The notes: generated by a model from the sequence alone, not told the origin. Shown: positions 1 through 63,636, counted from the stretch's first letter. The stretch is DNA of 64,000 nt from a virus (IMGVR_UViG_3300025000_000061:1-64000); one strand, 5' to 3'. Made by a program: numbers and translations.

Positions 1-745
1 ATTTAGACAAATTAAAAAACCAATATATAAAAAGAATCCTGATTATATTAAATTAACAGGGTATGAAAAATATTCTCAACCTTTTCATTATGAAGTATAT
101 GACTGTGATGGAACGATACTATTTAAATCTGATATAGTTAAAACTGATTTTGAATATTCAAATAATGAGCATTGGAAATTCTTTGACCATTTAGATGAAA
201 TAGAGAAAAAAGCAAAAGGCCAATGTCTAGAATGGCTGAATAATAATTATCCTGATTGGGAAAATGATTTAGCATATTGGGATTAGGAATAATTAATATG
301 AAAAAACTAGACTTAAATGAACTACACAATTTTGCATGGTTATGGTTAGTAGAAGGTGAACAATTTGAAAAGTTAACTTCAGAGCAATCATTGTTCTTGT
401 ATTATGTAATGGTTGTATTGAATAAGGTGAAACAGAGTGAAATGGATATAATTGTTTGGGGATGAAATACAGAGGAATATGTGTGTTGACAAATGTAGAA
501 AAGAGGTTAAGTAATAATATGATTAATATAGATTTACAATATGAAACTATGGAGAAATGTCAGGAGTATTATGATGCCGTAACTGCTGAGATAGGTAAAA
601 AAGGTTTTATATGGTTAAAGAATGAAGAAACAAGGCAATTAATGGTTTATACTAGAGGTGAATATACTGAGCAGATACTTAAATTTCTTAAGAGTTTAAA
701 ATAAATCATGTCCAAATGAGATTTTTATTCAAAGGAGAGAATATT

Positions 746-1189
746 ATGAATTTCATATTAATTGAAAATATTGTTGATACCTTAGTAAATACAAATTTGA
801 TGTTTGACGAAGGAATTAAAAAGACTTGGTATTATAATAATCAAATAAAAGATATATACCCAAATAAACAAGAAATTGAGGTTATTCATAGATTAATTTT
901 TTGGAGTACTCCTAGCCAGTTATGGTCAAAAACATATAAAAAGCCAACTAATGAAGAAAAATATAAACTAGTTGAAAATATTTCTGATAAAGAGAAAATA
1001 GTTCTTAAAGCTTTAATAATTTTGAAATATAATCAAATTTACAGATTGAATCATGTTTTTATTCCTGTAACAGAAACTTATGAAATAGATATTAATGAAA
1101 GAAATCACCCTCAATTATTTTTTTATGGTTTATTTCATAACTTAGAAAGAGAAGTTTTTTATAATATCAATAAATTATTAGAAATATAG
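746..1189 (+). CDS. hypothetical protein
   Basis: ORF; start moved to ATG 746 behind SD AAAGGAG. Confidence 0.7.
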   Translation: MNFILIENIVDTLVNTNLMFDEGIKKTWYYNNQIKDIYPNKQEIEVIHRLIFWSTPSQLWSKTYKKPTNEEKYKLVENISDKEKIVLKALIILKYNQIYRLNHVFIPVTETYEIDINERNHPQLFFYGLFHNLEREVFYNINKLLEI

Positions 1190-2218
1190 ATTATAACATG
1201 ATAGATTGTGAATATGGTCATGATATTAAAGGAGAATAATTTAATGAGTAATAAATATATGTGTGAAGGTTTAGGTCATAAAAATGATTATTGTTGTTAT
1301 ATGATTAGTCCAATATTATGTAAAGGGTGTCCTTACTTTGAAAAAGAATGGCAATATAAAATAAAACAAAGTCAATTTACATATTGTATAATCTATGAAA
1401 AAAAACCTATAAATGTCCTTATAAAACAATAAGAAAAGAATTTATAAAATAATAGAGGGAGATGTTATAATGAGTCATTCAATATTTAAAATTAATTTTG
1501 ACACTCAAAAACATACGGTATTATATGAATGTATAAGTAATATTAAAGATGCAGAATTATTAGCACAATTAGCAATGGTTAATAAAAGTGTTGATGATTT
1601 AATTTTTATAAGTGCAGGATGGAATAGAGGTATAGAAAATAATCCTGAAGAATATGAAAAGGCATTAGAATTAGCAGAGAAATATAAATGTGAAAGGAGT
1701 AAATAAATATGAAAGAAATTAAACCGTTTTTTATATCATGTTCAATAGAAAAAGTAAGATACATGAGAGGTGAATTTATTTACAATCATCCTATAAATTT
1801 ATCTCTTTGTATAAGCATAAGTAAAAGTAATTATTCTTGGTATCCTGATAATATTGGGAAACCATCTATAAAATTAAATGGTTGTGATCAAGAATGGGTT
1901 TACAATAATGAAGAAGAAAGAGAAATTGATTATTTGAAAATTGTCAATAATGAATATTAATTATAAAAGGAGATATAATTACATTATGAATAATAATTCT
2001 CACAAAGATATCAAAGGTAGTCATTTAGCACCCAATGAAATATGTGAATATTATTATAATTGTAAAATAGAAAATTGTGAAGGTAAGAATAAAAACAGAA
2101 ATAATAAATTAAGTTGTGGATTACGGAGAGCGTTTTTAATGTCAGATGGTTACGAAGTTGAATATGGCTGTATTAATAATAAATTAAAATAATAATTATA
2201 GAAAGGAGATGATTAACT

Positions 2219-2539
2219 ATGCTAAATAAAATCATGCAAGAATTTAACTTAAAACATGATTGGTGTTCTGATTATGATGTTTATGTTTGTAAAAACGATA
2301 ATTTACTAATTCAATTCATAAATCCTCATAATGGTACAGATTGGAAATATTGTTTAAGAGCAGATTTTCCAGAGACACTTGATAGATGGGGAGTATGTTT
2401 GTTTGAAGAATCATTTGAATATGATGAATTAGACATAGTTATTGAGAAATTGAGGGAGTTTGTTAATGATAAAGAGAGTATTATTAAGAAGCAAAAAGAA
2501 AAATATCTAGAATTGTATGATGATGATTATAAATTATAA
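2219..2539 (+). CDS. hypothetical protein
   Basis: 106-aa ORF with SD AAAGGAG. Confidence 0.75.
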   Translation: MLNKIMQEFNLKHDWCSDYDVYVCKNDNLLIQFINPHNGTDWKYCLRADFPETLDRWGVCLFEESFEYDELDIVIEKLREFVNDKESIIKKQKEKYLELYDDDYKL

Positions 2540-3079
2540 TAAAAGAAAAGGAGAGATTAATTATGAGCGACGAAGTATATTATAAAATTTATTATTTAGA
2601 TCGTGAAGATCATGTAACTGTAGTTTGTATGCAAGATTTTGATGAATATGATTATATACAAGAACATTTCTTTAAAGATGAGAATGGAGAAATATTAAAA
2701 TTTGAATGGGAACATGAAGCAATTCAATGGCTTATAGATAACGTAAAGGAAGATAAGGTTGATCCTGAGTATAAGCAATATGGATTTAATCAGAGTAAAT
2801 ATATGAAATAATATAGGAGGTAGTTATATGTTAAAATATCTACATTTACAATTTATTAAATTAAAATCATTAATAAATAAAGATATAATAATATGTGCTA
2901 TTGATAAAAAAAATAATATGTCTTACATTATTAAAAATGGTAGTATTGTAGATACTATTCCGATAAGTAATAATATAATTAGAGGCAAACGAAGTAAGAT
3001 ACCACTATTCTACGATGAATTTGAATATAATAAAGAGAATTTAGATAAGGTAATTAAAGAATACATAATATAATAAAGG

Positions 3080-3472
3080 ATGTTAATTAATATGCTCATT
3101 CCATTAAATAAAATAAAAGACACTTCAAATGATTTCTATCAACCATTAACTCAATGGGAATGCATTATAAAAGGTATTTATGCTGGTGTTAATGGTTTTT
3201 ATCATTGTAAAATAGTTAGATATTATAGTGTTTGTAGTATTGATGATATGGAATACGCTATGATTGATTTTATTGTAGAAGTTAATTTTGGAGAAACTGA
3301 GGAAATATCTAAAAATGTTATATTATCACAAAGTATAACTTGTTCTGCACATAGGATAGGTGGTACTAATATGGATATTAGGAAAAGACATGATAATCTT
3401 GAATCTGCAAAAAGATTTGCTAAATCATTAATCAATGAGAAGCAAGGAAGAATGAAATGGATTAAAACATAA
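3080..3472 (+). CDS. hypothetical protein
   Basis: 130-aa ORF (start may be 3092). Confidence 0.7.
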   Translation: MLINMLIPLNKIKDTSNDFYQPLTQWECIIKGIYAGVNGFYHCKIVRYYSVCSIDDMEYAMIDFIVEVNFGETEEISKNVILSQSITCSAHRIGGTNMDIRKRHDNLESAKRFAKSLINEKQGRMKWIKT

Positions 3473-3530
3473 TAAAAGATTGATTTGGTCATGACATACG
3501 ATTCAATAAACCCTTTGTTTATAAGGGTTT
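3472..3530 (-). repeat. Composite site (reverse orientation): core ATAAA-N8-TTGGT-CATGAC plus 23-bp palindrome AAACCCTT-N7-AAGGGTTT
   Basis: Core 3472-3489, palindrome 3508-3530, 18-bp gap as in six other copies. Confidence 0.8.
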
Positions 3531-3557
3531 TTGTTTTATATAATTTAAATATTTATA

Positions 3558-3606: not shown

Positions 3607-3642
3607 TAATTAATTAATTAATCCAATCGAGGAGGAATACAT

Positions 3643-5874: not shown

Positions 5875-7043
5875 TAATCAAGAAAACAGAATTTGAAGGT
5901 ATTATGCATGGAAATGGTGAACAAACTATATTTGCAGTAACGGAAGATAGTTTTATGAATATATTTTTTGATTATCCACAGAAATATGATAGAGATTCTA
6001 GGTATGAAAACTTATATGAATTGTTGCCTGAACATTGCTATCCAGAATTAGAAGATGGTAAGATGTATAAGTTTGAGATAATTGTTAAGGCAATACCTAT
6101 TGATAAATAACATGATAAAAGCAATTTTTCATGCAAACTTAAATTAAATTTAGGAGGAATAAAATATGAAAATTCAAGATTATGTAAATCAAGGTATAAA
6201 CGTAGTAGATAGCATGAGAGGATTAAGAAAAACTACATACTCAGATACTTATATTTCTATTGTATTTCCCAATGGATACGTTGCGAGTATTTCTATAAGA
6301 GACAATAAATATTCAGTTGCCACTTGTGATTATGATGGTTATTTTGATTGGGATATATTAAAGCAATTTAAAAATAGTGATAGTGGTGCAGTTAGTTGTG
6401 ATACCGAAGATGAAGTATGTAGTATATTAAAATTTATTAAGGAATTGAGAGGTAGATAACCATGAATAATACTCAGAAAATACTAAATAAGATTATTAAT
6501 TTCATAGATGATTATTATAAAATAGCACCTATATTTTACAAAGATTGGTTAGATAAATATGGAATTAGTAATTTCAATTTTATAAATTATATATCTTTTA
6601 AAGAAGAGAATGAGGATATTGAAGAATATTTAAATTATTGTTTGTATATGCTTGAAGAATGTGAAAGACAATATCCTAAAGGTAGTGAGATTGTAGGATT
6701 TCAAATTGCTGATGTTATGAGAATGATGGCAGAAAGTAAAGAGTTGAATGGATTGTAAAGAGAGAGAAAAGGAGGAATACATATGAAATTAACAATAGAG
6801 AAAGAATTAAATCAAATTAATAATTTTAAGAAAAGTGAAGAAATAGAAGTAAAAGAAATAAAATTAGAAATAGGCAATATTACATTGTGTATAACTGAAC
6901 ATCAATTAGGATTGCCGTTAAATAAACCATATATTAATATAATAACTGATAGTGTAGTATATAGTATGGATTTAGATGCATTTATTAATAAAGGTATAAG
7001 TTAATACAAAGAGAATTTTAATCACAAAAAAGGAGCAAATAAT

Positions 7044-7409
7044 ATGAAAAAGTCAGATTTAAAAAATGGAATGATAGTAAAAACAAATGGTGACGATTAC
7101 GGAGTAGTTATAATTAAAGATTCTACAAATGAGAATTGTATAAAATTTTTATATTGTCCTAGATATTTAGTAGATAACGGTTGTTTGTTGAATAGTAATT
7201 TTGGTATAGTACATCCATTAGATGAATTAGATGATAATTTAAACTTTTATCATATTGTTACTGAGAATGATTTAGAACATTTTATAGATTCTAAAGTAGG
7301 AGATAAAATAATATTAGGACAAATAATTGAAGTGTTTGACTTAAATAGAATATGGATAAGAAATAATTTACAACCAACTCCTAGCGGGTTAATGGGAGAT
7401 TGTGAATAA
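7044..7409 (+). CDS. hypothetical protein
   Basis: 121-aa ORF with SD. Confidence 0.75.
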   Translation: MKKSDLKNGMIVKTNGDDYGVVIIKDSTNENCIKFLYCPRYLVDNGCLLNSNFGIVHPLDELDDNLNFYHIVTENDLEHFIDSKVGDKIILGQIIEVFDLNRIWIRNNLQPTPSGLMGDCE

Positions 7410-7423
7410 AGGAGGAAAAATTT

Positions 7424-7726
7424 ATGTATTATAGAGGAATGGAAATAATAGGAAATGATATTTTAAATTATAAATATCCCCATAATTTTAGTATAGATGA
7501 TATTATCAATGAATTATCTAAAGATAATAATAAAAAAGTTAAAAAACATTTATTATGGATGTTAGGGAAACATTTAAATCATATGAAAGAAACTATAAAT
7601 AAACACGAAGAAGTTATAAATAAACTTGTTAATTATATTAATAGGGTTGATAGAATGGTTTCCATGATGGATCATAGTGGTACAGCTAGAAATCTCGTTA
7701 ATAAACATAATTATGATTGGAGATAA
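7424..7726 (+). CDS. hypothetical protein
   Basis: 100-aa ORF with SD. Confidence 0.75.
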   Translation: MYYRGMEIIGNDILNYKYPHNFSIDDIINELSKDNNKKVKKHLLWMLGKHLNHMKETINKHEEVINKLVNYINRVDRMVSMMDHSGTARNLVNKHNYDWR

Positions 7727-7750
7727 ATAATTCAAAATCTATGATCCTAC

Positions 7751-7809
7751 AAACCATTGATTTTATTGGGTTTGTAGACTTGTAAATTATGACAAAAGAG
7801 ACATTTTAT
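7751..7809 (+). repeat. Composite site: 23-bp palindrome plus ACAAA-N8-TTTAT core
   Basis: AAACCATT-GATTTTA-TTGGGTTT 7751-7773; core 7792-7809. Confidence 0.85.
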
Positions 7810-7832
7810 TCAAACTTTAAGGAGGAAATATA

Positions 7833-8276
7833 ATGAGAGATAAAATAAGATTGAATGCCAGTTTTCCATTATTTACTGATGAATTTATGAAAAAATTTTT
7901 ATTAGATGTTAAAAATACTATTGACAATGAAGATATATTGTATGAACATTCTACTAATAATACTAATATATTTGTTTATAAATTAGATGAAGCAGAAGTA
8001 TGTATTAGCAACATGCATTTTTGTTTAGAATTTAATCCAGAGAATATTAACATAAGAAAATTTATTGATACGTTAAGGTGTGAATATAATAAATTAAAAA
8101 TTATTTATGAACACTTGGATACATTGTATAAATTTACTATCTACACACCTTATGCCTACAATGATGAAATCAAAAATCAATTAATTGAATTAGGAATTAT
8201 ATTTGAGGAAAATAAATCATGTAGGGATAATACAATGTATTTTACGGTTCATAGTCAAGTAAAGTTTTATAATTAA
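7833..8276 (+). CDS. hypothetical protein, paralog of 34419..34859
   Basis: Shared MRDKIR...FMK.FLL..KN.ID.EDIL.EH sequence. Confidence 0.8.
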   Translation: MRDKIRLNASFPLFTDEFMKKFLLDVKNTIDNEDILYEHSTNNTNIFVYKLDEAEVCISNMHFCLEFNPENINIRKFIDTLRCEYNKLKIIYEHLDTLYKFTIYTPYAYNDEIKNQLIELGIIFEENKSCRDNTMYFTVHSQVKFYN

Positions 8277-11792: not shown

Positions 11793-12338
11793 ATTATATA
11801 GTGATAATGAAAAGTAAATCTATTAAATATAAAAGGAGATATATTATGAATAAAATAATTGAAAAATGTGCATGGTGTGAAGAAGATTTATCTATGTTTC
11901 AAAGTTTAAAATTTGAAGGTAAATTAATAAATTGTCCATTATGCAATAATCAATATTTAGTAGAATATGATGATAATTGTTATAGTTATCTTCTTAAGAA
12001 ATGCATAAATGGAGAAACAGTTAATAGTATATGTATTAAAAGATATTCAAATAAAAAATAAGGAATGGTGAATTATATGAATGAATATGTTCTAGATCAA
12101 GAAGTTAATAAACTTTCAGTAAAAGATATGAAAACTGCATATTATGAATTGAAAGAACTTTCTGAAACAGGAATATTAGTAAATGGGATTGTTAGAGATA
12201 TTTTACGTAAATCTCAATTACAAAATCCATCTTTAAGTATTACTAATGTTCAATTAGCAATCTATGATAAATTAATTGAAAAATTAATATCATTATAAAT
12301 TCGTGAATTTATAATGATATTTTAAGGAGGAATGTTTA

Positions 12339-13711: not shown

Positions 13712-14047
13712 ATGCTTTTGAATTTTATAATTGACAAAAATATTGTTTTCCCAGTAGCTTTAGAATGGTTAATTGAAAATGGAATTTTAAATAAGGCAGG
13801 TGTGTCTTCGGTATTTTCTAAGGAAAAAGATTTATATTTAACTATTGAATTAAAAGTTGCTCCTAATTTGTTAATAGATTACATGATAAAATTTAATCAC
13901 CCTGATTTATATTTAACAAATGTAAATTTATATGGTATTGTTGGATTTACAATGAGTGAATATGAGGATGAGGATGATAATATAGAAAATTTATTTATAC
14001 CATTTAGTAATATTAGTTGTATTTATAAAAAGGAAAAATCTGTATAA
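13712..14047 (+). CDS. hypothetical protein
   Basis: 111-aa ORF with SD. Confidence 0.75.
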   Translation: MLLNFIIDKNIVFPVALEWLIENGILNKAGVSSVFSKEKDLYLTIELKVAPNLLIDYMIKFNHPDLYLTNVNLYGIVGFTMSEYEDEDDNIENLFIPFSNISCIYKKEKSV

Positions 14048-14362
14048 AAATCTAGTTTTGTTTTAAATAGAAAGGAGTGATTATTTATTATGGGATCATA
14101 TTATGTAGAAATTCCTATTGTTTTAAAGTTGATGGTATCTATAGAAGCGGAAAGTAGAGAGGATGCAAGAGAAAAAGTTTTAAATAGTGATATAAATATA
14201 GACATAAATGATGAAAAGAAAGAATTTGAATCTATTGATTATGAATGGGATATTTATGAAAGAATAGTGCAAGGAAATGTTTATTATGGTATTATTAATG
14301 AAATGAGTATTGAAGAAGATGAATAAAAAATATTAAAAATATTAAAGGAGGAATTACATATT

Positions 14363-22020: not shown

Positions 22021-22911
22021 ATGATTCGTAACATTGGATTTGCTTGTATGTCTTTAAAATGTAATACTAAATACAAAACATTTAGACTTGCTAATTTTAG
22101 TGAGCATAAATTATATCAAACTGTAATGCACAATATAAAAGAGACTGAGAGAACCATTAGACAGTGTTCTATAGATGGTATTAAAATTTTTAGATTAAGT
22201 TCTGACATTGTACCATTTGCTACTCATGAGGTAGTAAAAGGTATTGATTTTATGTCTTGGATTAGAAATGATTTAAAGAATATAGGTAAACTATGTAAAG
22301 ATAATGAAATACGTTTTAGTATGCACCCTTCACAAATAGTTAATATAAATTCACCAAGTAAAGATGTTGTTAAGGCTTCGATAAAGGATTTAATATATCA
22401 TTATAATATATTGAATTCTATGAGATTGGAAATGGATGATGATTTTAATATAATCATTCATGTAGGTGGTGTATATGGTGACAAAGTTGAAGCAATGAAG
22501 AGATTTATTAAAGTATTTAATAAATTACCAGAGCAGTTACGAAATCATATTGTGCTAGAGAATGATGATAAAAGTTATAATATTAATGATGTTATGGAAA
22601 TACATAATCATACTGGAGTGAAGATTGTGCTTGATCTACATCATCATATATGCTGTAACGATGGTTTAGTATTAAATTTAAAATCTATATTTAACACTTG
22701 GAACGGTAAATGTCCAAAGATACATATAAGTTCTCCTAAGTCGGACAAAGAGTTTAGGAGTCATGCAGAGATGATTGATTTTGATTATTGTAAGGAGTTT
22801 TTGAAACGGTCAGAAGGTTATGAGTTTGACGTTATGTTGGAGTGTAAGAATAAAGATTTAGCAGTTGATAAATTTAAAAAAGATTTAATGGAATACAAAA
22901 ATAATAGTTGA
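22021..22911 (+). CDS. uvsE: UV DNA damage endonuclease
   Basis: IGFAC, FRLSSDIVPF, SMHP, IHVGG, LENDD, DLHHH, HISSP, HA, MLECK motifs. Confidence 0.95.
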   Translation: MIRNIGFACMSLKCNTKYKTFRLANFSEHKLYQTVMHNIKETERTIRQCSIDGIKIFRLSSDIVPFATHEVVKGIDFMSWIRNDLKNIGKLCKDNEIRFSMHPSQIVNINSPSKDVVKASIKDLIYHYNILNSMRLEMDDDFNIIIHVGGVYGDKVEAMKRFIKVFNKLPEQLRNHIVLENDDKSYNINDVMEIHNHTGVKIVLDLHHHICCNDGLVLNLKSIFNTWNGKCPKIHISSPKSDKEFRSHAEMIDFDYCKEFLKRSEGYEFDVMLECKNKDLAVDKFKKDLMEYKNNS

Positions 22912-23875: not shown

Positions 23876-23982
23876 GTTTTAACCTCCTTGATTATTGATA
23901 GATTTAATTATATCATAATTAAATATAGTGAGCAAGAAATAGCAAGTAAACAAACTGTAAAGTTAAATACCTTGACACTAAC

Positions 23983-26027: not shown

Positions 26028-26036
26028 ATAGTCTAT

Positions 26037-39301: not shown

Positions 39302-39724
39302 TTGAAAATATTACATAATGCTCAGTGTTATAAGCAAGATAGGGAGTTGGATTGGAGAGGGTGGTGTCCGAAGAGGGGTGAGATTTATTTGTGTCAATTG
39401 GGTAATGAAGGTCTTATATATTCAGAGATTAAGGGGTATCGTCCCGTATTGGTTGTGTCAAATAACATAGCAAACAAACATAGTCCAGTAGTTTCTATTA
39501 TACCATTAACTTCTAGTCAAATAAAAAATAATAATATGCCTGTTCATGTTAAAGTAGGAGTAGAAGAAGGGTTACGAACTTCGAGTTTAATTTGTTGTGA
39601 GCAGACTAAAACCGTATCTAAAAATCGTATGTTCATAAATGGTAGTTTAACTAGAATTTGTAAATTGAGTAGTAAATCGATGTGTAAAGTGGACGAGGCA
39701 ATACGAATACAATTTGGATTGTAA
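39302..39724 (+). CDS. mazF: MazF/PemK-family endoribonuclease
   Basis: PKRGEIY, SEIKGYRPVLVVSNNIANKHSPVVSIIPLTS, HV, S.ICCEQ.KTVSK.R. Confidence 0.92.
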   Translation: MKILHNAQCYKQDRELDWRGWCPKRGEIYLCQLGNEGLIYSEIKGYRPVLVVSNNIANKHSPVVSIIPLTSSQIKNNNMPVHVKVGVEEGLRTSSLICCEQTKTVSKNRMFINGSLTRICKLSSKSMCKVDEAIRIQFGL

Positions 39725-39873
39725 ATAAATTGGGAATAGATTATAAATATAAATTATAATATATATTATCATATATTATAAAAGGGTGTGATGTCTTTGA
39801 TTGTGTAAAAATAAATTAAAAAGTTATTGTGTTTAAATTGTATCTATTAAAAAATAATATAAAAGGAGGATAT

Positions 39874-41412: not shown

Positions 41413-42008
41413 TTGAATTTATTATAGGAGCAATTTTATATGCAAAATATAAAAAGAAATATAAATTAAAATACATATTTAAATACCCATACATATTTGC
41501 AATAATACCACCTTTATTATGTGCCTTACTATACATATTTATAGAAATATCAGTTTGGAATCAATGGTATTGGTTTTTACCATATCAACATATAATAAAA
41601 ACTACAACTTTGTTAAGTTATATACCTTTACTTTATATATATAATCTTTATGAAAATGATAATCAAAAATACATAAATAATAATATAATGAATGTAGTTA
41701 CTTCACCTATGTTTAAAGCAGGATTCTGCTTATGGTTAGGTTCGACATTAAATAAAATAGTTATAAATGCTAACAATGGTATGCCAGTTTTCCCTAGTAA
41801 TACATACTGGACTGGTTACGCCAAACCAGATTTATTTAATGATGGTATACATATATTAGGTAATGCTTATACAAAATTAATTCCTTTGTCAGACTGGATT
41901 GATATTTTTTACTCGGTGATTTCCCCAGGAGATATTTTAATTCGTATGTATGTTTTTTTAATTATATATTATGCTATAAAATATTCTAATAAATTATTAA
42001 TAAAATAA
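41409..42008 (+). CDS. DUF5317-family membrane protein (likely CTG start)
   Basis: Frame open from 41403; LIEFIIGAILYAK..., LN..VI.ANNGMPV, H.L, L.D.I, SPGD motifs; SD AAAGGGTG. Confidence 0.8.
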   Translation: MIEFIIGAILYAKYKKKYKLKYIFKYPYIFAIIPPLLCALLYIFIEISVWNQWYWFLPYQHIIKTTTLLSYIPLLYIYNLYENDNQKYINNNIMNVVTSPMFKAGFCLWLGSTLNKIVINANNGMPVFPSNTYWTGYAKPDLFNDGIHILGNAYTKLIPLSDWIDIFYSVISPGDILIRMYVFLIIYYAIKYSNKLLIK

Positions 42009-42048
42009 TAAAATAAATGTTGACACTTAAACAACTCTATGGTAATAT
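42002..42048 (+). promoter_or_regulatory. sigmaA promoter for sensor-agrD with upstream motif variant
   Basis: AAAATAATAAAATAA 42002-42016; TTGACA 42020-17-TGnTAATAT. Confidence 0.7.
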
Positions 42049-42080
42049 ATAAATAGAAAATTACTAAGGGAGTTGGTTAT

Positions 42081-42881
42081 GTGGAACAAAATATTATAAA
42101 TGCGATATTGAATTTTTTCACAATTAGTTTGTTCGAGGAGTTAGGTATAGTTTTACTAATTTTAATATTTTTAAAAAGATTTGATTTACTTGATAAATAT
42201 ATGTGGAGATGGAATATAAAATGGATAATTTTGCCTACAATTTTAACGTCATTCTCCATAAATATATTTATATACATAATACCAAATTTTATATTAAAAT
42301 TTTTTGTTTCTATTATTGTTTTATACTTTTCTATAAATTATATCTTAATTAAAACAGACCCATTAGATGAAAAAATAAAATGGTATAAAATATTAATCAG
42401 TATAATATTAAGCATAGTTATGATAACAAGTGCAGAAATAATATATTTACCAATAATGCTTCAATATGTTAATCAACCAATAGAAATATTGAATAATAAT
42501 ATGTTATTAAAATTTATAGTAAGTTTGCCAGCAAAAACATTTCAAGTGTTATTGATTTATTTCATGTATAAAAAACATAATCAAAGTGAAAAATATGTTT
42601 CTAATATTTTAAAAGATAGAATATTATCTTTAGTTACAATTAGTTTTACTGGTTTAATATTGTTTGCTTTAACATGTATAGTAAAAATTGTAATTAGTTC
42701 AGAAATGATTGGTAAATATTCAATACAAACTCAAATGATGATTAGTGTATTAATAACAATTGTACCAACAATACTAATATTTCTTTATATCATACCAATT
42801 AATTACCTATTATCACGATTATTCAGAATACAACAGAGTTATCAACAAATGTATGATGATGTTGATGATACTGATGTATAG
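42081..42881 (+). CDS. multi-pass membrane protein resembling an AgrC sensor domain, lacking the kinase domain
   Basis: About 7 hydrophobic segments, immediately upstream of agrD, no H/N/G boxes. Confidence 0.6.
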   Translation: MEQNIINAILNFFTISLFEELGIVLLILIFLKRFDLLDKYMWRWNIKWIILPTILTSFSINIFIYIIPNFILKFFVSIIVLYFSINYILIKTDPLDEKIKWYKILISIILSIVMITSAEIIYLPIMLQYVNQPIEILNNNMLLKFIVSLPAKTFQVLLIYFMYKKHNQSEKYVSNILKDRILSLVTISFTGLILFALTCIVKIVISSEMIGKYSIQTQMMISVLITIVPTILIFLYIIPINYLLSRLFRIQQSYQQMYDDVDDTDV

Positions 42882-42913
42882 ATACAATGAATTGAAAGGA
42901 GGTGAAATTTATT

Positions 42914-43039
42914 ATGAAAAAATATACTCTTTTAGTCGTAGCTGGTTTTATTGCTTTAGTTGCTACTGCACTTACTAATTCCGTAGCATCTTTCATGGGA
43001 TTGAATCAACCTAAGAGTCCTTCTATGTTAGTAAAGTAA
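42914..43039 (+). CDS. agrD: cyclic lactone autoinducer peptide precursor (41 aa)
   Basis: MKKYTLLVVAGFIALVATALTNSVASFMGLNQPKSPSMLVK; SD AAAGGAGGTG; leader, S-X4 ring, xQPKxP tail. Confidence 0.9.
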   Translation: MKKYTLLVVAGFIALVATALTNSVASFMGLNQPKSPSMLVK

Positions 43040-43055
43040 TATGACTACATAGAAA

Positions 43056-43093
43056 ATTCTAAAGTAGAGTGTTTACTTCCTCTACTTTAGAAT
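43056..43093. terminator. 14-bp perfect stem-loop after agrD
   Basis: ATTCTAAAGTAGAG-N10-CTCTACTTTAGAAT. Confidence 0.75.
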
Positions 43094-43179
43094 AAAAAAA
43101 TAATATAAAAACTATTGTGTTCTATATTAATATATGGTAACATATAGACAAGAATATAATAAATAAGGAGTGGTAAAAA

Positions 43180-44055
43180 ATGATGTTATTTAATAAAAAA
43201 GAAATTCTTAAAAAAGATAATCTTGTGGATGATAAATTTAAAAAAGAGATGGCATTTTTAGTATTTAAAGCAAAAGGTAGACGAAATATTGAACAATTCG
43301 TAAAAGACATGAAAATGTTTGATCCTACACCAATCGTTAATTTAATAAATAAAAATTATAATGAATTACCTGATAGAAAATTATTAAGGAAAATAGCCGA
43401 TAATAGTATGGGAATGGTTAATTTTAGGATATTATATGATCTCTGTGGTTACTCCGAGAGAGATCCTGAAGAAGATCGTAGTTGGATAAAATGGGTTCCA
43501 AGATGGGCAGAAGTTTATATGTGTGATCTAGGCATAGGAGAGGATTGTATTCAAGGAGGGAAAAGAAATGTATTAATAATTCAAAATAATAAAGGCAACC
43601 AACACTCACCGAATGTATCTATATTGCCAATATCCAGTAAATGTAAATTTAACCATATGCATATACTATTAGAAAAAGAATTGGGTTTTGAAAGGGATAG
43701 TTACGCATTGTCAGAAATGCCATTAACTGTAAGTAAGAGGAGGTTCTTTTATAATACAGTACCTTATAAAATTACAACACTTTCAGATTTTAAAATGAAA
43801 GAAATACAGGTATGTCTTGAGAAACAATTTGGATTTTTACCACTTTATTTTGACGTAGAACATGCATTTGAACTAGTCAGACATATAAAAAATCTAGAAC
43901 AAAATATAAAAATCAAAAAATCACATAATTTAGTAGATATTATGGAAGATAAATTAAATGACCTAAAAGAATACTGTTCAAAATACAAAAAGAATTATCA
44001 ACATTACCTACAAGAATACGATAGAATCAATAACTATGGTATTCAAGCAATATAG
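43180..44055 (+). CDS. extended MazF/PemK protein with N-terminal Xre-HTH-like region and C-terminal helical extension
   Basis: KAKGRRNIEQF..P..KLLRKIA..LYDLCGY, then PRWAEVYMCDLG..IQGGKRNVLIIQNNKGNQHSPNVSILPISS. Confidence 0.8.
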   Translation: MMLFNKKEILKKDNLVDDKFKKEMAFLVFKAKGRRNIEQFVKDMKMFDPTPIVNLINKNYNELPDRKLLRKIADNSMGMVNFRILYDLCGYSERDPEEDRSWIKWVPRWAEVYMCDLGIGEDCIQGGKRNVLIIQNNKGNQHSPNVSILPISSKCKFNHMHILLEKELGFERDSYALSEMPLTVSKRRFFYNTVPYKITTLSDFKMKEIQVCLEKQFGFLPLYFDVEHAFELVRHIKNLEQNIKIKKSHNLVDIMEDKLNDLKEYCSKYKKNYQHYLQEYDRINNYGIQAI

Positions 44056-44126
44056 TGTAAATACTATATTTCTTCTATAAAATATTAATAATAAACAAAA
44101 AACAAATAAAAGGAGATGTTCAACAA

Positions 44127-44600
44127 ATGATTAACGAACACAAATTAAAGTATCTATGCAACAAATATGGTATTAATTATCAAGTATTTCATGCAACAGA
44201 TACCATATTAATAGATGCAAAATTAGATATATGGGAGGTGAAATATTATGAAGAAATACAAAAAAAATTAAATTTATTATACAATAAACAAAAAGAAATT
44301 CAATTGCAATTATTATCTCCTGTATTAGATGAACCAATTAAGAAAAAATTATTATATGAATATGAAAAAATAAACAAAAAAATAAAAGAAACAAAACCAT
44401 ATTATTTACTTCATAAAAATAAATCTGATAATAAATTTAGCAATCAGCACACACAAGGATGGAAGAAAAATTTATATCAAGTAATAACTTTTATATTAGC
44501 ACATAAAAGAGTTTTATATGGCATCCAATTAGGAAAGCCATATATACATAAGCACAATATTAAAATAAATAAGAAGGGAAAAGTATGTTTAAATACATAA
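44127..44600 (+). CDS. hypothetical protein overlapping the agrB start
   Basis: 157-aa ORF with SD. Confidence 0.7.
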   Translation: MINEHKLKYLCNKYGINYQVFHATDTILIDAKLDIWEVKYYEEIQKKLNLLYNKQKEIQLQLLSPVLDEPIKKKLLYEYEKINKKIKETKPYYLLHKNKSDNKFSNQHTQGWKKNLYQVITFILAHKRVLYGIQLGKPYIHKHNIKINKKGKVCLNT

Positions 44601-45271
44601 GATACCTATTAACATTCCGATATATCAAACTAATATCCTATATATCTGCTAAATATCTTCATAATAAAATACCTGTATTCCCACTAATAGATTCAAAAGT
44701 TTTATTAAAATTTTTACCAAAAAATATGTTAGATTTATTTGAAAATTTACATCAACAATCTAAATTAAAACCATATAAACTTAAATATGTTTATTACTAC
44801 GGTTGTCAAATCATCATAGGAGGCATTAACAAATTCCTACTCTTAATCACACTAGGCATCCTACTCAACATCCTCCCATATCTCATACTAACAACAATAT
44901 CATTCGTATCATTGCGAATTTGGTCTGGAGGGTTACATTTTGACTCTTACTCTAAGTGTGCCTACATTTCACTCTTATCATTTACAATCATGGCACTATT
45001 AGCAAAATACATCTACATATCAACCATACCTACTATATTAATATTCTTAATTGTCTTAATTTTAATTCTATTATATGCACCAGTAGAGCATCCCAACAGA
45101 CCAATAAAAAATAACGAAAAAGTTAAATTTAAATTAATTTCAATTTTCTCATTGTTAATATTACTATTAGTTATTTTATGCGTAAATAATATTATTATCT
45201 GTAATTCTATAGTGTTTGGAGTGCTATTAGCAGGTATAATTATGTTGCCTATTATAAACAAACTGAAATAG
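44585..45271 (+). CDS. agrB: AgrB-family autoinducer-processing peptidase
   Basis: YG.QII, LR..SGGLH....C (catalytic His/Cys), YAPVEHPNRPI, several TM segments. Confidence 0.93.
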   Translation: MFKYIRYLLTFRYIKLISYISAKYLHNKIPVFPLIDSKVLLKFLPKNMLDLFENLHQQSKLKPYKLKYVYYYGCQIIIGGINKFLLLITLGILLNILPYLILTTISFVSLRIWSGGLHFDSYSKCAYISLLSFTIMALLAKYIYISTIPTILIFLIVLILILLYAPVEHPNRPIKNNEKVKFKLISIFSLLILLLVILCVNNIIICNSIVFGVLLAGIIMLPIINKLK

Positions 45272-45388: not shown

Positions 45389-45435
45389 TTGTTCTTTTGT
45401 TATCAATGTATTATAATTGGACGAACAGGTGTTCT
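45389..45435 (+). promoter_or_regulatory. sigmaA promoter followed by a LexA (Cheo) box
   Basis: TTGTTC-17-TATAAT (45412-45417); CGAAC-AGGT-GTTCT 45422-45435. Confidence 0.75.
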
Positions 45436-45472
45436 ATAAATAATAACATAATAATATTAGGAGGAGATTGCA

Positions 45473-45703
45473 ACGAATAGTGAAAAAATTTATACAATCA
45501 AAGATGAAAAAGGTAATTTTGTTCATGGTGATGGTATTAGAAAGATCGGCAAAGAATATTATTATTTGCCATATGAAAGTTTAAAAGATGGCTGTATTGT
45601 TTATACTAATAAAATAAGAGTAGAGAAGGCTCTGAATAATCTTGAAATACATAATCGATTAGGTGAGTTAGGACATAAATTTATTATTGAACTTGTCTCT
45701 TAA
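45473..45703 (+). CDS. small unannotated protein (about 76 aa, ACG or ATT start)
   Basis: AGGAGG, then an open frame TNSEKIYTIKDEKGNF...FIIELVS*. Confidence 0.55.
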   Translation, partial: TNSEKIYTIKDEKGNFVHGDGIRKIGKEYYYLPYESLKDGCIVYTNKIRVEKALNNLEIHNRLGELGHKFIIELVS

Positions 45704-45732: not shown

Positions 45733-45761
45733 TTGACATAGTATGAAGATACATATATAAT
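45733..45761 (+). promoter_or_regulatory. sigmaA promoter of the yopQ/mrpR-like operon
   Basis: TTGACA-17-TATAAT; degenerate motif AAGATACATATATAA 45746-45760. Confidence 0.8.
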
Positions 45762-45809: not shown

Positions 45810-47183
45810 ATGCTTAGTATAAAAAATGCTATGTTAATAGGAGAGTTAAAACCACTAATATTAAAGTATGGCAACAATTCAAAAATCTATAACATTATAC
45901 AAGAGGAATTTATTAAAAAAGGGTTATCTGGTAGCAATGCAAAAAACTTACTAACAGGTAAAATTGCTTTAGAAACATTAGATATTACCAATCAAAAAGA
46001 ATTATTCTTATTATTTTCTTTTACAGATGCTATGAAGAAAGCACTAAGTACATTTGATGAAATGTCCAAGGACACTTTTGGCATGGAAGAGGAATATATT
46101 AAATTAAAATTAGAATATTATTTTACACCCATAGAGATTGAAGAATTTACAGAATTCGTTATAGAGAAAGAAGAAGTAAGAAAATATCCGTATAGATTAA
46201 GAAATATGTTAAAAGTAGGAGAAAATCATTATATAGGGATTATAACTTCTAAAGAATTAGCCGAAATAGATTCTACTAATGATATAGTATATGACTTTGC
46301 AACACAAAGAGATCCTAAAATTGATATATTTGGAATGAGACGTATTAATGTTGACACAAGAAAAATTGATGCAATTGAAAAAAGTTTACTTGCTGGTGAA
46401 TATTTTTCAGATGAAATCAAGTTGAATGTTAAGAATGATGGAGAAGATCATATCGAATTCGATTCAAAGGACGGAATTTATGGTGATCTTATTATTCATT
46501 CAGGAACAATAACTTGTTTTGATGGCTATCACAGAAAAACTGCCAATTCTAAAGCGCAAAATAAAAATAATGAATTGCAATTTAACTGGAAGTTAGGTGT
46601 CACCAATTATCCAGAACCTAAAGCAAGAAAATTTATGACACAGATTAATAAACAAAAACCTATTAAACGTGAATACGTTAAAAATATTGATGAAACAAAA
46701 AATGAAAATACAATTGTCAATAATATTATTAATAATTCTAATTCTGAATTTGCCGATAAAATTAAAGAATCTGATGCAGAATTAAAATTTAGTGGTTTAA
46801 CTAAAAAATCTATATTATCTCTAGCAATAGAAGAACAATATGAAGAATTTTTAAACACTAAAATTTATAATATTGAAATCTCTAATTGGATAGTAGACTT
46901 TACAAATTATTTAATGGGACTATATCCTAATGAATTTTTATTTAATGTAGACAAAACTAAAAAAGTAAGTTATATTAATAATAGAAATATGTTCATAGGT
47001 TATATTGCACTTTCAAGAAAGTTATATAAGCAAGATGATTGGAAGAGTAAGACCGTTAAAATAATGAACAGTATTGATTTTAGCATTGAAAATAGCATAT
47101 GGAAGAATATTCGTATTGATGATAATATTTTAAATAAAACATCAAGAAAAGAATTATATAATCTATTTATAAAGGAGGTGTAA
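45810..47183 (+). CDS. DGxHR (DndB/ParB-like) domain protein, SPbeta YopQ-like
   Basis: Y...TQR, I.LN, FDGYHR, F.QINKQKP motifs; 457 aa; precedes an integrase-like gene. Confidence 0.7.
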   Translation: MLSIKNAMLIGELKPLILKYGNNSKIYNIIQEEFIKKGLSGSNAKNLLTGKIALETLDITNQKELFLLFSFTDAMKKALSTFDEMSKDTFGMEEEYIKLKLEYYFTPIEIEEFTEFVIEKEEVRKYPYRLRNMLKVGENHYIGIITSKELAEIDSTNDIVYDFATQRDPKIDIFGMRRINVDTRKIDAIEKSLLAGEYFSDEIKLNVKNDGEDHIEFDSKDGIYGDLIIHSGTITCFDGYHRKTANSKAQNKNNELQFNWKLGVTNYPEPKARKFMTQINKQKPIKREYVKNIDETKNENTIVNNIINNSNSEFADKIKESDAELKFSGLTKKSILSLAIEEQYEEFLNTKIYNIEISNWIVDFTNYLMGLYPNEFLFNVDKTKKVSYINNRNMFIGYIALSRKLYKQDDWKSKTVKIMNSIDFSIENSIWKNIRIDDNILNKTSRKELYNLFIKEV

Positions 47184-47186: not shown

Positions 47187-48251
47187 ATGGTAAAGCATAA
47201 AAATGGTAAGATTAACTTAGCAGAGAGAGTATTTAAACATGATAGAGATGTTAAAGAAGAATTTTTAAAAGATATTAAACCATCAACTGCAAAAACTATA
47301 AGAAGCATACTTTTTAAAGTAGATGATTATGAAGATCGAATCGGTAAAAGTATATATGATTTTACCTTTGAAGAGCGTGATGATTTCTTTATTTCTCAGT
47401 TTTGTAATAAAAGTAAGGGCGTTATTAATACAACAAGATCATATTTAGTAAAGTATATTAACCATTGTATTGATAACAACCTTGTTAGACATATGGAGAA
47501 TAGGTTTGATTTAATTTCTAAAGATGATATTGATAAATATATTAATGATACTGCAATGCAAATGAAATATCTATCTAGAGAAGAAATTAAAGAAGCACAG
47601 GATAAATTAGTTAATAATTGTGATAAGTTAATTTTGCAATTAATACCTTTGTCTGTCAGAGGGCGTACAGAATTGAATAATACTAATGAAGAATTAATTA
47701 ATTTGAGAGTAAAAGATGCTGAAGAATCTTATGAAACAGGTATTTTGCATGTCTGGAATAATGACGGTGATAGAAGACCTGTGAAAATTGATGAAGAAAC
47801 AATAGAATTATTGAAAAAGACAATAAATGATGATAGTTATATTATTAATAACGGAAGCATTTATGATAAAAAAGGGAGAATACTTGGCAGGGGTATCGGA
47901 GAAAAATGTTTTCCTTTAAATGATACTGGTTATGTATTTAGAACTGCTGGTAAGAATAAAAAAGGAAAAGTTAAAACTAATTTTTTTGGTTCTAGGATGA
48001 GAATAATGAAAACCTGGACGATGAATCCATTTATCACCGTAACGAATTTGTATTATTCTGGAATTATCGATTATGCTATGCAATTAAGAAAAGAAAAAGG
48101 TACAGAATTAGATAATCATGATTATATTAAAATAATTGATAAGTTTTCTTATGGTAAACCACAAATACTATCAAACAAAGAATTAGATTGGAGTGTACCA
48201 ATATCAAAAGTAAAATCTATGGTGGAAGATTATATTAATAGAAAATTATAA
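47187..48251 (+). CDS. tyrosine-recombinase-fold protein without catalytic HxxR, MrpR/YopR-like lytic-cycle repressor
   Basis: KEEFL..., E....K.IYDF, YLSREE, DKLIL..VRG..EELINLRV.D; TNLYYSG in place of HxLRHS. Confidence 0.75.
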   Translation: MVKHKNGKINLAERVFKHDRDVKEEFLKDIKPSTAKTIRSILFKVDDYEDRIGKSIYDFTFEERDDFFISQFCNKSKGVINTTRSYLVKYINHCIDNNLVRHMENRFDLISKDDIDKYINDTAMQMKYLSREEIKEAQDKLVNNCDKLILQLIPLSVRGRTELNNTNEELINLRVKDAEESYETGILHVWNNDGDRRPVKIDEETIELLKKTINDDSYIINNGSIYDKKGRILGRGIGEKCFPLNDTGYVFRTAGKNKKGKVKTNFFGSRMRIMKTWTMNPFITVTNLYYSGIIDYAMQLRKEKGTELDNHDYIKIIDKFSYGKPQILSNKELDWSVPISKVKSMVEDYINRKL

Positions 48252-52271: not shown

Positions 52272-52846
52272 AGGAGAATAAAATATGAAAAAAGTAATAA
52301 TAAAATCATGTACTAGATGTCCATATTCTGATTTTAGTATACCTGATGAAGATGAGATGGGAAGTTATATTTGTTATAAAGTAAAAAGAGAACAGTATGA
52401 TTATGAATCTGATTATGATAACAAAGAAGGTAAATTTATTATCACTTTAAAAGGTATTAGTGATCTTGAATATTCTAAAATGCTAGATAGTTATATTCCT
52501 GATTGGTGTCCATTAGAAGATAATTAAAAATTATAAAAAGGAGATAATTTAATTATGAATGTAAGAGAATTAAAGAAATTATTAGAAAATATGAAGATGA
52601 CGTAGAAATTATTACATCATCAAGTAATTATGAGTTAAGTGGTGGTAGAGTTAAAGCAAGAATTATAGAAACAAAATGTTCTATAATAAGAGAAAGATTT
52701 AGAGATGATTTTGATGGAACAATGTATAGTAAAGAAATTTATAAAAGTGATCAAAATGGTAAAACAATGTTATTGGTAGTAGGGTAAAGGAAATAAATGC
52801 CCAAAAAATGTGAATTTTAACAATCTATGAAAAATAGACATGCCAC

Positions 52847-52905
52847 AAACCATTGATATTACTGGGTTTGTAAAACTCAATATCATGACAAAATACTCGT
52901 TTTGT
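52847..52905 (+). repeat. Composite site: 23-bp palindrome plus core
   Basis: AAACCATT-GATATTA-CTGGGTTT 52847-52869; ATATCATG-ACAAA-ATACTCGT-TTTGT (core 52888-52905). Confidence 0.85.
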
Positions 52906-53143
52906 GTTAAATGGAAAGAGGTGAAAATATGACTTGTAAATATTGTGATAAACCTCATATATTTGAATCCGAATATACAGGTGACAAAGTATGTCTTGAA
53001 CATTTGTGCAATATATGTTATTGTAATGATTGCCATAGAAGATTAACTGATTGTCCATGCGGAGGTTGTAATCGTTGTAATGATGATCCACTTGAAATTC
53101 AAGATGGTTGTAGTTGGAGATAATTAATAAGGAGTAAAATATA

Positions 53144-53971: not shown

Positions 53972-54207
53972 AAGGAGAATAGATAATTATGAAATGTTTA
54001 AATTGTAATTGTGAATCAATGTTTAAAACAAAAATTGGTTTTACATTTGAAGGTGGGTATCCTGAAGGAATATTAATGGAAGAAGAAATAAAAATTAGGG
54101 AAAAGGGTTGGGTTTATACTAATTTAAATGCTTATAAATGTGACAATTGTGGATTTGTTATGTTATTTAGTGAGAAAGAATAGATATTATAAAAAATTGA
54201 AATTTTA

Positions 54208-54266
54208 AAAGTATTGATTTATAAGGGTTTGTAGCATGTAAAATTGCGACAAAACCATCATTTTAT
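54208..54266 (+). repeat. Composite site: 23-bp palindrome plus core
   Basis: AAAGTATT-GATTTAT-AAGGGTTT 54208-54230; ACAAA-ACCATCAT-TTTAT 54249-54266. Confidence 0.85.
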
Positions 54267-54700
54267 GAGGAAAGGAAAAAATTATGATAGATAAATTTTT
54301 ATTAACTGGTCAAGATAAATTAATATTTACTGAAATACCACAAAAACCGGATGAATTTACTAATAGTAATTTTGTAAAGATGATTATTCCTATTAAGTAT
54401 ATTGATTATGAAACTGGTGTATTTAAATTAAAAGAATTTATTGATAGTATTAATAATGAAGTAATTCAATTTGAATATAATCCTAAAAATTAAAAACAAA
54501 ATTTAAAAGGAGGTTTTATCATATGCCTAATAAATTATATGAAGAATTAAAAATATATGTATTTGTCAGAGATTATCTTAGACAATATAATGCAATGTGT
54601 ATAAACGGTATTAATGATTGTATTGAATGTGGTTTATGTTGGATGAATCCAAAAGAGATAACTGAAGTAGAAAAATGTTTATAAAAATTAAAATAAATGC

Positions 54701-62343: not shown

Positions 62344-62368
62344 TTTAATTCAAAAATATTGATTTTAG

Positions 62369-62433
62369 AAACTGTTGATTTATAATGGTTTCTAAACTTC
62401 AATATTTGCACAAAAGAGAATTTTTATCGTGAT
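62369..62433 (+). repeat. Composite site: 23-bp palindrome plus core
   Basis: AAACTGTT-GATTTAT-AATGGTTT 62369-62391; ACAAA-AGAGAATT-TTTAT-CGTGAT (core 62410-62427). Confidence 0.85.
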
Positions 62434-62968
62434 ATAAAAGGAAAATAAGAGGTAATTTATATGGAAAACTTATTAATTGGTACAATTATTATATATAGTG
62501 TTATTAGTATGCTTATTTCTGGAATACATGTAGATTATTATATAAAAGAAAATATTAACCCATTCAAAGATGCCAAAGATTCAATTAAAGAAATAGAAAC
62601 AATTGGTGATTTAATTATTTTTATACTATTATCTTATGCTTGGTTAATTGCAGTATTGTTTTATGGTATAGTGAAAGTATTCTATAATCGTTATACAATT
62701 TCTTTAATGAATGTAAGAATAAAGAAGAAAGGATAAAATATATGAATAGATTGATTATTAGTAATAATCCTTCAGATTTTACTGTAATAGATCATACTTA
62801 TCATGAAATTAAAGGTAATTATGAATTTTCATTTTATCAAAATCTAAATTATGGTGGTATAAGTAAATATGGTGAAATAGTTATTGATGATTTTGATATT
62901 GATAAAGTGATTGAATATTTACAGTTAATGAAAAAGTTAGGGGATAGAAACAAAGAAAGGAGAGAAAT

Positions 62969-63433
62969 ATGAATCCAACAATTAAAAAACTCTTAGAAAC
63001 AAAACAACCTAAAATAACTACATTATCAGACAAAGAAAAAAGAATATATAAAACTGGTCTAACTATGTTAGGTGCAATTATATCTGATGATTTCTTTGAT
63101 ATTCCTAGATTACCTAAAGATAAATATTCTACTGAAGGATTATTTTATGAAATTACTTATTATGATAGTGATCAATTGTGGACACAAAGTGATGGACAAA
63201 GATTTCTTTTAGTAGTATATAAAATTGAAAAAAGTAAATTAGGTATGAGTTCTCGGTGTCCATTAAGAATTGATTTTAAAATTGTTGATGAAAAGAATTA
63301 TGGTATATATTTTTATGATCAGTCTGGACAGAGGACTGTAAAAAGAGATTTAATGTCTTGTGAAGATGGTAAGTATTATACTGAAATTGATAATTATGAT
63401 AGGGTTAAATTGAGTAAATTGGTGAATATTTAA
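62969..63433 (+). CDS. hypothetical protein
   Basis: 154-aa ORF with SD. Confidence 0.75.
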   Translation: MNPTIKKLLETKQPKITTLSDKEKRIYKTGLTMLGAIISDDFFDIPRLPKDKYSTEGLFYEITYYDSDQLWTQSDGQRFLLVVYKIEKSKLGMSSRCPLRIDFKIVDEKNYGIYFYDQSGQRTVKRDLMSCEDGKYYTEIDNYDRVKLSKLVNI

Positions 63434-63602
63434 TGGATAAATATGAGAAGGAGATAAATATGAATAAATTTATAAAAAGATTAAAGAAAAGAATTAAAAT
63501 GAAATTTTGTAAGCATGAATATGAATGGAAAGCATCTTATTTAGTGATGTTTCAACAATGTAAAAAATGTGGGAAGGTAATACCATAAGATAGATAATAA
63601 AA

Positions 63603-63636
63603 AAATCAACACAAATCATTTCTTTCGTCATGATTT
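63603..63636. repeat. 34-bp 13-8-13 site
   Basis: AAATCAACACAAA-TCATTTCT-TTCGTCATGATTT. Confidence 0.75.

Follow-up and report, generated by a model that had tools for sequence, protein, structure and literature searches.

Introduction

To our knowledge, repressors with a tyrosine-recombinase fold have been described only in 2023-2025, and only from SPbeta-like phages of Bacillus. About ten promoter regions of SPbeta are bound by MrpR at a repeated element, SPBRE, and repressed, as determined by chromatin affinity precipitation sequencing (ChAP-seq) and electrophoretic mobility shift assay (EMSA) (PMC10516654), and SroF of phi3T clamps, as a monomer, a 26-bp A-tract-rich box, with many sites genome-wide (bioRxiv 10.1101/2025.11.27.690993). 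Here, a dispersed loxP-like motif was analysed in a 64-kb stretch of viral DNA (IMGVR_UViG_3300025000_000061:1-64000, hereafter the window), together with the gene at 47187-48251, which encodes an integrase-fold protein of the MrpR/SroF family. A reading made from the sequence alone (the sequence-only reading) had listed 16 such sites at gene boundaries and proposed that they delimit gene cassettes shuffled by a tyrosine recombinase or, as an alternative, that they are bound by the recombinase-fold repressor. The alternative now appears the best supported: by analogy with MrpR/SPBRE and with SroF and its 26-bp box, the 47187 protein would bind the sites (hereafter boxes) and repress, and we think it fairly probable that they are operators of this master repressor, silencing early genes.

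The window is the start of a linear, 151,782-bp IMG/VR virus record (82% complete by CheckV) whose source is a groundwater metagenome, and the stretch is present in four DNA sequencing runs of one groundwater study, with no RNA run listed. G+C content is 24.5%, the plus strand carries nearly all genes, and about 14% of the genome is intergenic. The window consists of long arrays of small open reading frames (ORFs) and a lysogeny module at 39.3-49.1 kb, and to its right lie genes for replication and nucleotide metabolism (DNA polymerase, helicases, ligases, ribonucleotide reductase). Searching 20 kb by megablast against a phage collection gave no match.

Enrichment and layout of the motif

The dispersed, loxP-looking motif is real and non-random. 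A 29-nt matrix was built from six seed copies with the spacer masked, and the whole 152-kb genome was scanned, using block dinucleotide shuffles as control. In this comparison the longer motif is enriched, with 17 further matches at a score of at least 16 vs 0.86 in shuffles (maximum 5), and 23 matches at a score of at least 14 vs 3.3; at a score of at least 12, about 11 matches are expected by chance genome-wide. The 14-nt arm AAATCATGAYAAAA, allowing one mismatch, occurs 8 times vs 1.2 ± 1.05 expected, and 0 of 100 shuffles reach 8. The short core AYAAA-N8-TTTRT, around which the sites had been described, is by itself hardly enriched (11 exact copies in the window vs 5.8 ± 2.5 in shuffles, 4 of 100 of which reach 11). 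Nine of these 11 exact cores are on the earlier list, those at 1793 and 7749 are not, and the other seven listed sites are mismatched variants. The full extended consensus proposed earlier is found in no single copy, its halves CATGAYAAA and TTTRTCATG occurring 8 and 4 times in the genome and never at the same site.

The box measures about 26-34 bp and comprises a conserved arm AAATCATGAYAAA(A), a variable centre of 6-8 bp, TTTTRT and, in some copies, a mirror-image second arm; one arm with the centre and the inner TTTAT makes 26 bp. The two-armed 13-8-13 architecture claimed for the sites holds for a minority, since at least 9 of 13 arm positions are symmetric in only 7 of the 28 sites scored (12295, 75875, 111272, 63611, 151449, 24024, 37846), vs 0.7% of intergenic positions. 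In the remaining sites one arm and the inner TTTTRT are conserved, and symmetry is limited to the inner AAA/TTT.

The matrix accepts nine of the 16 listed sites (711, 3472 on the minus strand, 7792, 24024, 26078, 52888, 54249, 62410 and 63611). The site at 12295 forms a perfect palindrome, and 36909 and 37846 have one near-perfect arm, whereas 6115 and 14044 are borderline and 34376 and 50894 are at chance level; the make-up of gene junctions (TAA stop, A/T-rich filler, Shine-Dalgarno sequence (SD)) accounts for part of the earlier yield. About a dozen boxes right of the window had not been listed (64.7, 75.9, 83.2, 88.2, 88.3, 90.0, 107.2, 111.3, 128.8, 148.7 and 151.4 kb). Window sites outside the composite elements described below, and scoring best or most symmetric, borderline, or as half-sites, were as follows:

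701-729, plus strand: one-armed box, ATAAATCATG-TCCAAA-N6-TTTTAT, start codon 16 nt downstream, matrix score 16.2
3464-3499, minus strand: box, best matrix score 18.6 on the minus strand, then a canonical terminator hairpin (3499-3531) with a T run, and a promoter at 3578
6107-6132, plus strand: borderline site, matrix score 12.8
12286-12321, no strand assigned: perfect 15-6-15 palindrome, AATATCATTATAAAT-tcgtga-ATTTATAATGATATT, 13/13 symmetric
14036-14061, plus strand: borderline site, matrix score 12.4
36901-36926, plus strand: half-site, left arm AAATCATGATAAAA perfect (zero mismatch), right arm poor, matrix score 8.8
37846-37871, minus strand: half-site, good arm AAATCATAATAAAA on the minus strand with one mismatch, symmetry 9/13
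63598-63641, no strand assigned: palindromic box, 10/13 arm positions symmetric, matrix score 13.3 (plus) and 19.4 (minus)

The palindrome at 12286-12321 overlaps the stop codon of the upstream ORF, with an ATG at 12339, 17 nt downstream; its matrix score is low because it carries the variant AyAAAT/ATTTrT, which is also found at 75875 and at position 16149 of a related phage, G001. Three of the earlier descriptions were borne out. Boxes do occupy the gap that separates one gene's stop codon from the SD of the next (of 25 distinct sites, about 21 fall in intergenic DNA), their spacers do differ between copies (for example gagaca, gaatgg, gtgtaa, tactcg, ccatca, gagaat), and they are absent from 39.3-48.3 kb; in the matrix scan, no match scoring at least 13 was found between 26.1 and 52.7 kb, an interval that includes the lysogeny module and the promoter of the repressor operon at 45733. 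A Pfam search of ten genes downstream of boxes returned no family. A separate 5-mer dyad enrichment screen missed the box, since A/T words abound, and revealed palindromes of the form TACTA-N4-TAGTA.

The integrase-fold protein and its lysogeny module

The candidate binding protein is encoded within the following stretch of the lysogeny module:

39302-39724 and 43180-44055: MazF-type toxin genes, the second with an extra N-terminal part
44585-45271: AgrB gene (7.4e-37), in the same place in relatives
45733-45761, plus strand: strong sigma-A-type promoter of the yopQ/repressor operon, TTGACA-17-TATAAT, without a box
45810-47183, plus strand: yopQ-like gene, tblastn with SPbeta YopQ 4.6e-19 (46119-47168), phrog_5732
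47187-48251, plus strand: putative integrase-fold repressor gene of the MrpR/SroF family, 354 residues, PF22822 5.9e-14 (MrpR N-terminal core-binding domain), PHROG 'integrase' phrog_5830

A profile built from the clade alone matches only PDB 9rd5 (3.6e-25) and MrpR/YopR of SPbeta (8a0a, 7.5e-23) over the full length (residues 13-328, core-binding (CB) and catalytic (CAT) domains), and no catalytic recombinase was among its matches at E up to 1. PDB 9rd5 and 9rgl are presumably the structures of phi3T SroF. Identity between the 47187 protein and YopR is 25% over 86% of the length. For the active site, seven catalytic positions were mapped through two concordant alignments onto the published table comparing MrpR with Cre, XerH and lambda Int (PMC10516654). 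By this mapping, three of the seven appear to be kept, Arg I (R158), Glu (E169) and Tyr (Y349), and the others appear to be replaced (D193 in place of Lys, T286 of His II, Y289/Y290 of Arg II, P325 of His/Trp III); Arg II is absent in all 12 clade members. As predicted from these alignments, the 47187 protein is a full-length MrpR/SroF relative with a tyrosine-recombinase fold that is catalytically degenerate.

The yopQ-like gene lies directly 5' of the repressor gene, which is the yopQ-yopR pairing of SPbeta, and the MazF/AgrB stretch occupies the position of the SPbeta arbitrium genes; a DUF5317 gene is also present in this part of the module (window 39302-45271). By tblastn, no YopP, AimR or YonO homologue was found in the record. 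A single Cheo/LexA-type box in the window (GAACAGGTGTTC, 45423-45434; at least one occurs in 12 of 100 shuffles) is followed by an ORF of 79 residues (45461-45697) just upstream of the yopQ/repressor operon, an arrangement that recalls the LexA-controlled antirepressor Sar of phi3T/SPbeta. Between genes of the module, at 39829-41412, lies a gene for a 527-residue HNH/homing-endonuclease-like protein with DUF7487, with internal DNA repeats at 40.1-40.7 kb.

Placement of the boxes relative to promoters and start codons

Because consensus scans for promoters and terminators returned counts equal to those of shuffles in 24%-GC DNA and were uninformative, promoters were instead scored with a matrix derived from 21 strong ones in the genome itself. 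These are about 21 nearly identical sigma-A-type promoters in the record (aaaataaatnTTGACA-N17-TAtAAT, with a TGn extended -10 in several), a class that probably heads the main early operons:

3578, 9667, 19468, 21957, 22908, 29854, 42020, 45733, 54701 and 63642 in the window, and 11 more right of it: strong sigma-A-type promoters

Strong promoters at 63642, 75906 and 148704 each have a palindromic box that stops 4-5 nt short of their TTGACA; the first of these boxes, at 63598-63641, stops 4 nt upstream of the -35. The other boxes lie 16-35 nt upstream of start codons. In the SPbeta record, the SPBRE boxes of aimR and of the first yonX copy stop 4 nt short of the -35, and those of yopM, yopV, yonP and the second yonX copy adjoin the SD. 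This shared geometry, before a -35 or near an SD, supports the reading of the boxes as operators. In a lysogen, the repressor clamped on the boxes would keep the small-gene arrays and the replication genes from being transcribed, and the lysogeny module, which would need to stay on, is free of boxes. The resemblance of the best copies to loxP is probably a legacy of their reader's descent from a recombinase.

The location between a stop codon and the next SD is also what would be seen if the sites formed hairpins in polycistronic transcripts, ending, stabilising or processing these at gene boundaries. Palindromic copies do fold stably (12295, z = -4.57), and A and T runs flank the perfect palindromes of a distantly related phage fragment, G004. 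We nevertheless judge a role in RNA very improbable, since most copies fold no better than shuffles (z of -0.5 to -1.2), the arm sequence is conserved beyond what pairing needs, there is no U tail, and a search of the whole window against Rfam gave no family match.

Composite elements

Six of the sites (7792, 24024, 26078, 52888, 54249 and 62410) are copies of one directional element of about 88 bp (nhmmer E of 1e-14 to 1e-18), which the sequence-only reading had missed:

7733-7820, plus strand: composite element 1, nhmmer E 1.2e-17, box 7782-7810, matrix score 23.3
23966-24052, plus strand: composite element 2, nhmmer E 5.7e-14, box 24014-24042, matrix score 25.1
26020-26106, plus strand: composite element 3, nhmmer E 5.7e-15, box 26068-26096 with a perfect left arm AAATCATGACAAAA, matrix score 29.4
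52829-52916, plus strand: composite element 4, nhmmer E 2.6e-18, box 52878-52906, matrix score 28.1
54192-54277, plus strand: composite element 5, nhmmer E 2.6e-15, box 54239-54267, 16 nt upstream of ATG 54284, matrix score 24.2
62351-62438, plus strand: composite element 6, nhmmer E 6.4e-15, two-fold symmetric box 62400-62437, matrix score 23.2 (plus) and 19.5 (minus)
7733-7781, 23966-24013, 26020-26067, 52829-52877, 54192-54238 and 62351-62399: copies of Part A, the upstream portion of each element

Part A consists of inverted arms, ACAAACC(C)...(G)GGTTTGT, between which lie TTGAT and a hexamer resembling TATAAT. In element 1, for instance, ACAAACC..GGGTTTGT encloses TTGAT and an A/T hexamer and is followed by the box AAATTATGACAAAA-N6-TTTTAT, with ATG 7833 lying 22 nt downstream. 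The distance from the end of Part A to the A-tract of the box does not vary: all 13 composite copies compared, from three phages, have 16 nt. The stems show compensatory changes in some copies and are broken in others, and the Part A hairpin of element 3 has a folding z of -3.95. An intrinsic terminator was considered for Part A and rejected, as there is no U tail on either strand, and with the genome-trained sigma-A matrix Part A is weak as a promoter; element 2 contains TTGACA-17-TATAAA at 23972 (promoter matrix score 4.9, top 0.02% of positions). Part A is neither a clear promoter nor a clear terminator.

The weakness of the composite elements as sigma-A promoters bears on a further possibility, that the box itself drives the next gene, as a promoter or start signal recognised by an RNA polymerase or sigma factor specific to the phage. 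The constant placement 16-35 nt before start codons and the orientation of most strong copies with transcription speak for such a signal, but many copies have two-fold symmetry or reach their higher score on the opposite strand, three adjoin the upstream edge of strong canonical promoters, and tblastn found no YonO-like polymerase in the record, so that we hold this to be improbable. The box as a sigma-A promoter was tried separately and rejected, because ATGACA needs a -10 hexamer 17 nt downstream, which is absent.

A second set of palindromes was observed right of the window. These are paired 14-bp palindromes TACTAnATATAGTA with a period of 31-32 bp, at the following places:

L009:676-721 (genome 64676): paired palindromes
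L009:17748-17792 (genome 81748): paired palindromes
L009:19205-19218 (genome 83205): paired palindromes
L010:5969-6013 (genome 89969): paired palindromes

Three of the TACTAnATATAGTA pairs end about 5 nt upstream of a box, and a TTGACA promoter at 89947 has its -10 within the first palindrome.

Boxes and repressors in related phages

Metagenomes from groundwater and elsewhere contain homologues of the repressor with 41-84% identity, each preceded by a yopQ-like gene; querying viral and genome contigs with the single protein gave no relatives, and querying with an alignment gave three. In all tested relatives with a repressor of about 50-84% identity, matches to the box matrix outnumber expectation:

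G001: 8 box matches vs 1.8 expected
G005: 13 box matches vs 1.75 expected
G007: 16 box matches vs 2.0 expected
L035: 4 box matches vs 1.0 expected
L037: 6 box matches vs 0.5 expected
L006: 2 box matches vs 0.3 expected

No enrichment was seen in G003/L016, where repressor identity is 38%, nor in SPbeta. ACCAAA is favoured in G001 and ACAAAA in the present genome, and in L035 there is a perfect 16-6-16 palindrome whose outer arm differs. Composite element 1 has an orthologue at G001:16100-16177, the two forming a conserved island between unrelated flanks; in this comparison, homology to a paralogous gene begins at the SD/ATG, not in the box centre. More distant fragments, G004 (L130-L133) and G006 (L140-L144), carry at least 17 boxes, many of them perfect palindromes ATCATGAyAAAA-N6-TTTTrTCATGAT every 1.2-2 kb, with an upstream hairpin ACAAATCCCAwTATATAGGGATTT (unlike Part A) and a downstream SD. 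In L035, an IS605-type OrfB/TnpB (Cas12f-like) gene (6814-7947) is inserted between AgrB and the yopQ-like gene.

That the motif follows the repressor clade also bears on whether the boxes are operator or activator sites of a different protein, either a small unannotated phage regulator or a host factor, with the MrpR-like repressor binding elsewhere. Most phage ORFs are unannotated, the link between box and repressor is drawn by analogy, and the coupling of boxes to other palindromes (Part A and the TACTAnATATAGTA pairs) suggests multi-factor control. Against a different binder, no HTH_3 (Cro/CI-type) protein was found in the 152-kb record and the lysogeny module showed no further recognisable DNA-binding regulator, and arms of about 13 bp with centres about 21 bp apart would suit recombinase-fold clamps better than typical helix-turn-helix dimers. 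On balance a different binder seems rather unlikely.

Several observations weigh against the repressor of the 47187 gene as the reader of the boxes. Its connection to them is by analogy, and the co-occurrence of box and repressor clade could reflect shared phage ancestry. The mode of binding may be another one than in phi3T, where SroF is monomeric, because several boxes are two-fold symmetric. No box accompanies the promoter of the repressor operon itself, unlike that of SPbeta yopM, and six boxes come in a fixed 16-nt register with another conserved inverted repeat, Part A. The repressor gene is also absent from the G004 and G006 fragments, which are 47% and 73% complete and hence uninformative on this point.

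Proposed cassette recombination

The chief proposal of the sequence-only reading, cassettes shuffled by a tyrosine recombinase, was not upheld: the spacers all differ, no active enzyme was found in the record, and no homology breakpoint with G001 falls in a site. Put fully, the sites would be loxP- or dif-like targets and the blocks between them mobile cassettes, with the enzyme encoded in the missing 18% of the genome or supplied by the host as a Xer-type recombinase. A few copies do show the 13-6/8-13 architecture, the gene arrays are highly mosaic (22% shared with G001 at the DNA level), the perfect palindromes of G004 and G006 recur each 1.2-2 kb, the repressor clade retains Arg I, Glu and Tyr, and the record is 82% complete. 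Exchange of the Cre/FLP type requires matching overlap regions in both sites, and because the centres differ in every copy, such exchange between sites is prevented. Most copies are also asymmetric. A search for an active tyrosine recombinase gave no PF00589 match in the 152-kb record (82% complete) and no YopP homologue, and the sole recombinase-fold protein is predicted to be without Arg II, Lys and both His positions. We therefore consider cassette exchange by such an enzyme extremely unlikely.

Breakpoints were checked by blastn against G001, and 0 of 17 boxes hold a homology boundary, in a comparison of consensus contigs that share only 22% of the region. Boxes 7782, 75865 and 88333 lie wholly within blocks shared with G001, and a homology boundary is present in 4 of 13 box-bearing vs 19 of 115 box-free intergenic regions, proportions that are not clearly different. 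Four other samples yielded contigs that run colinear with the record for 37-58 kb at 99.6-100% identity, three boxes included. We give hardly any credence to the boxes being still recombinogenic through an enzyme from the missing part of the genome, a host Xer-type enzyme or the repressor itself, which seems to keep Arg I, Glu and Tyr; if they were, repressor operators would double as cassette-exchange points and feed the mosaicism of the small-gene arrays in this phage group.

A recombinase of another class was observed near the right end of the record:

143736-145220 (genome, about 144.8 kb, L008), minus strand: large serine recombinase, Resolvase domain 8.4e-19, open frame of 513 residues

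This is likely the phage's integrase, like SprA of SPbeta. Large serine recombinases do not use loxP/FRT-type sites.

Other features of the window

One further gene was noted, apart from the boxes and the lysogeny module:

22021-22911: phage-borne UvdE UV-damage endonuclease gene (PF03851, 1.9e-67)

Comparison with known systems

Compared with loxP/Cre and FRT/FLP, the best copies (12286-12321, 63598-63641 and 75865-75902) have the same inverted arms of about 13 bp around an asymmetric centre of 6-8 bp, and the candidate binder shares the Cre fold; unlike loxP and FRT, the centres are all different, mostly one arm is good, and neither an active recombinase nor recombination junctions were found. 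The dif/pdif sites of XerC/XerD (11-6-11), the borders of modules on Acinetobacter plasmids, are likewise imperfect palindromes of 28 bp, dispersed at the boundaries of gene blocks and with 6-bp centres, but the present sites lie off the homology breakpoints between relatives and are tied to promoters and SDs. The finding is a warning that loxP-like repeats in phage genomes do not imply recombination per se.

Compared with phi3T, the box resembles Phi3TRE, the site of SroF, in its long A-tract, its candidate integrase-fold clamp, its 26 bp and its many spread copies, and the LexA-type box before a small ORF near the repressor gene resembles the arrangement of Sar. Whereas phi3T SroF is a monomer on an asymmetric box, about a quarter of the boxes here are two-fold symmetric with arms of 13-15 bp, which suggests, from the sequence of the sites, that two protomers could bind. 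SroF is without the catalytic tyrosine (bioRxiv 10.1101/2025.11.27.690993), and the corresponding Y349 appears to be kept here. With a two-armed quarter of boxes and Arg I, Glu and Tyr seemingly kept, this lineage could be an intermediate between a dimer-bound recombination site and the asymmetric monomer box of phi3T SroF.

Compared with SPBRE and MrpR (YopR/SroF) of SPbeta (PMC10516654), a homologous degenerate repressor of the tyrosine-recombinase fold is encoded behind a yopQ-like gene, and an A/T-rich box of about 24 bp recurs in about 10-25 intergenic repeats in the early region, 4 nt before a -35 or directly before an SD. The box sequence is unrelated to that of SPbeta (CAAATACAAAWAATATGTATAWA, read from its record) and repressor identity is only 25%; the present clade appears to keep Arg I and to have lost the Lys that MrpR keeps. 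Unlike in SPbeta, some boxes are long palindromes, the promoter of the repressor operon is box-free, and an Agr-type module replaces the arbitrium genes. The record would extend the integrase-fold repressor system to an uncultivated lineage of 24%-GC groundwater phages and provides for it a concrete operator candidate of about 25 sites with a clear consensus, and by this analogy the sites are most likely the counterpart of SPBRE and Phi3TRE in a new uncultivated phage lineage.

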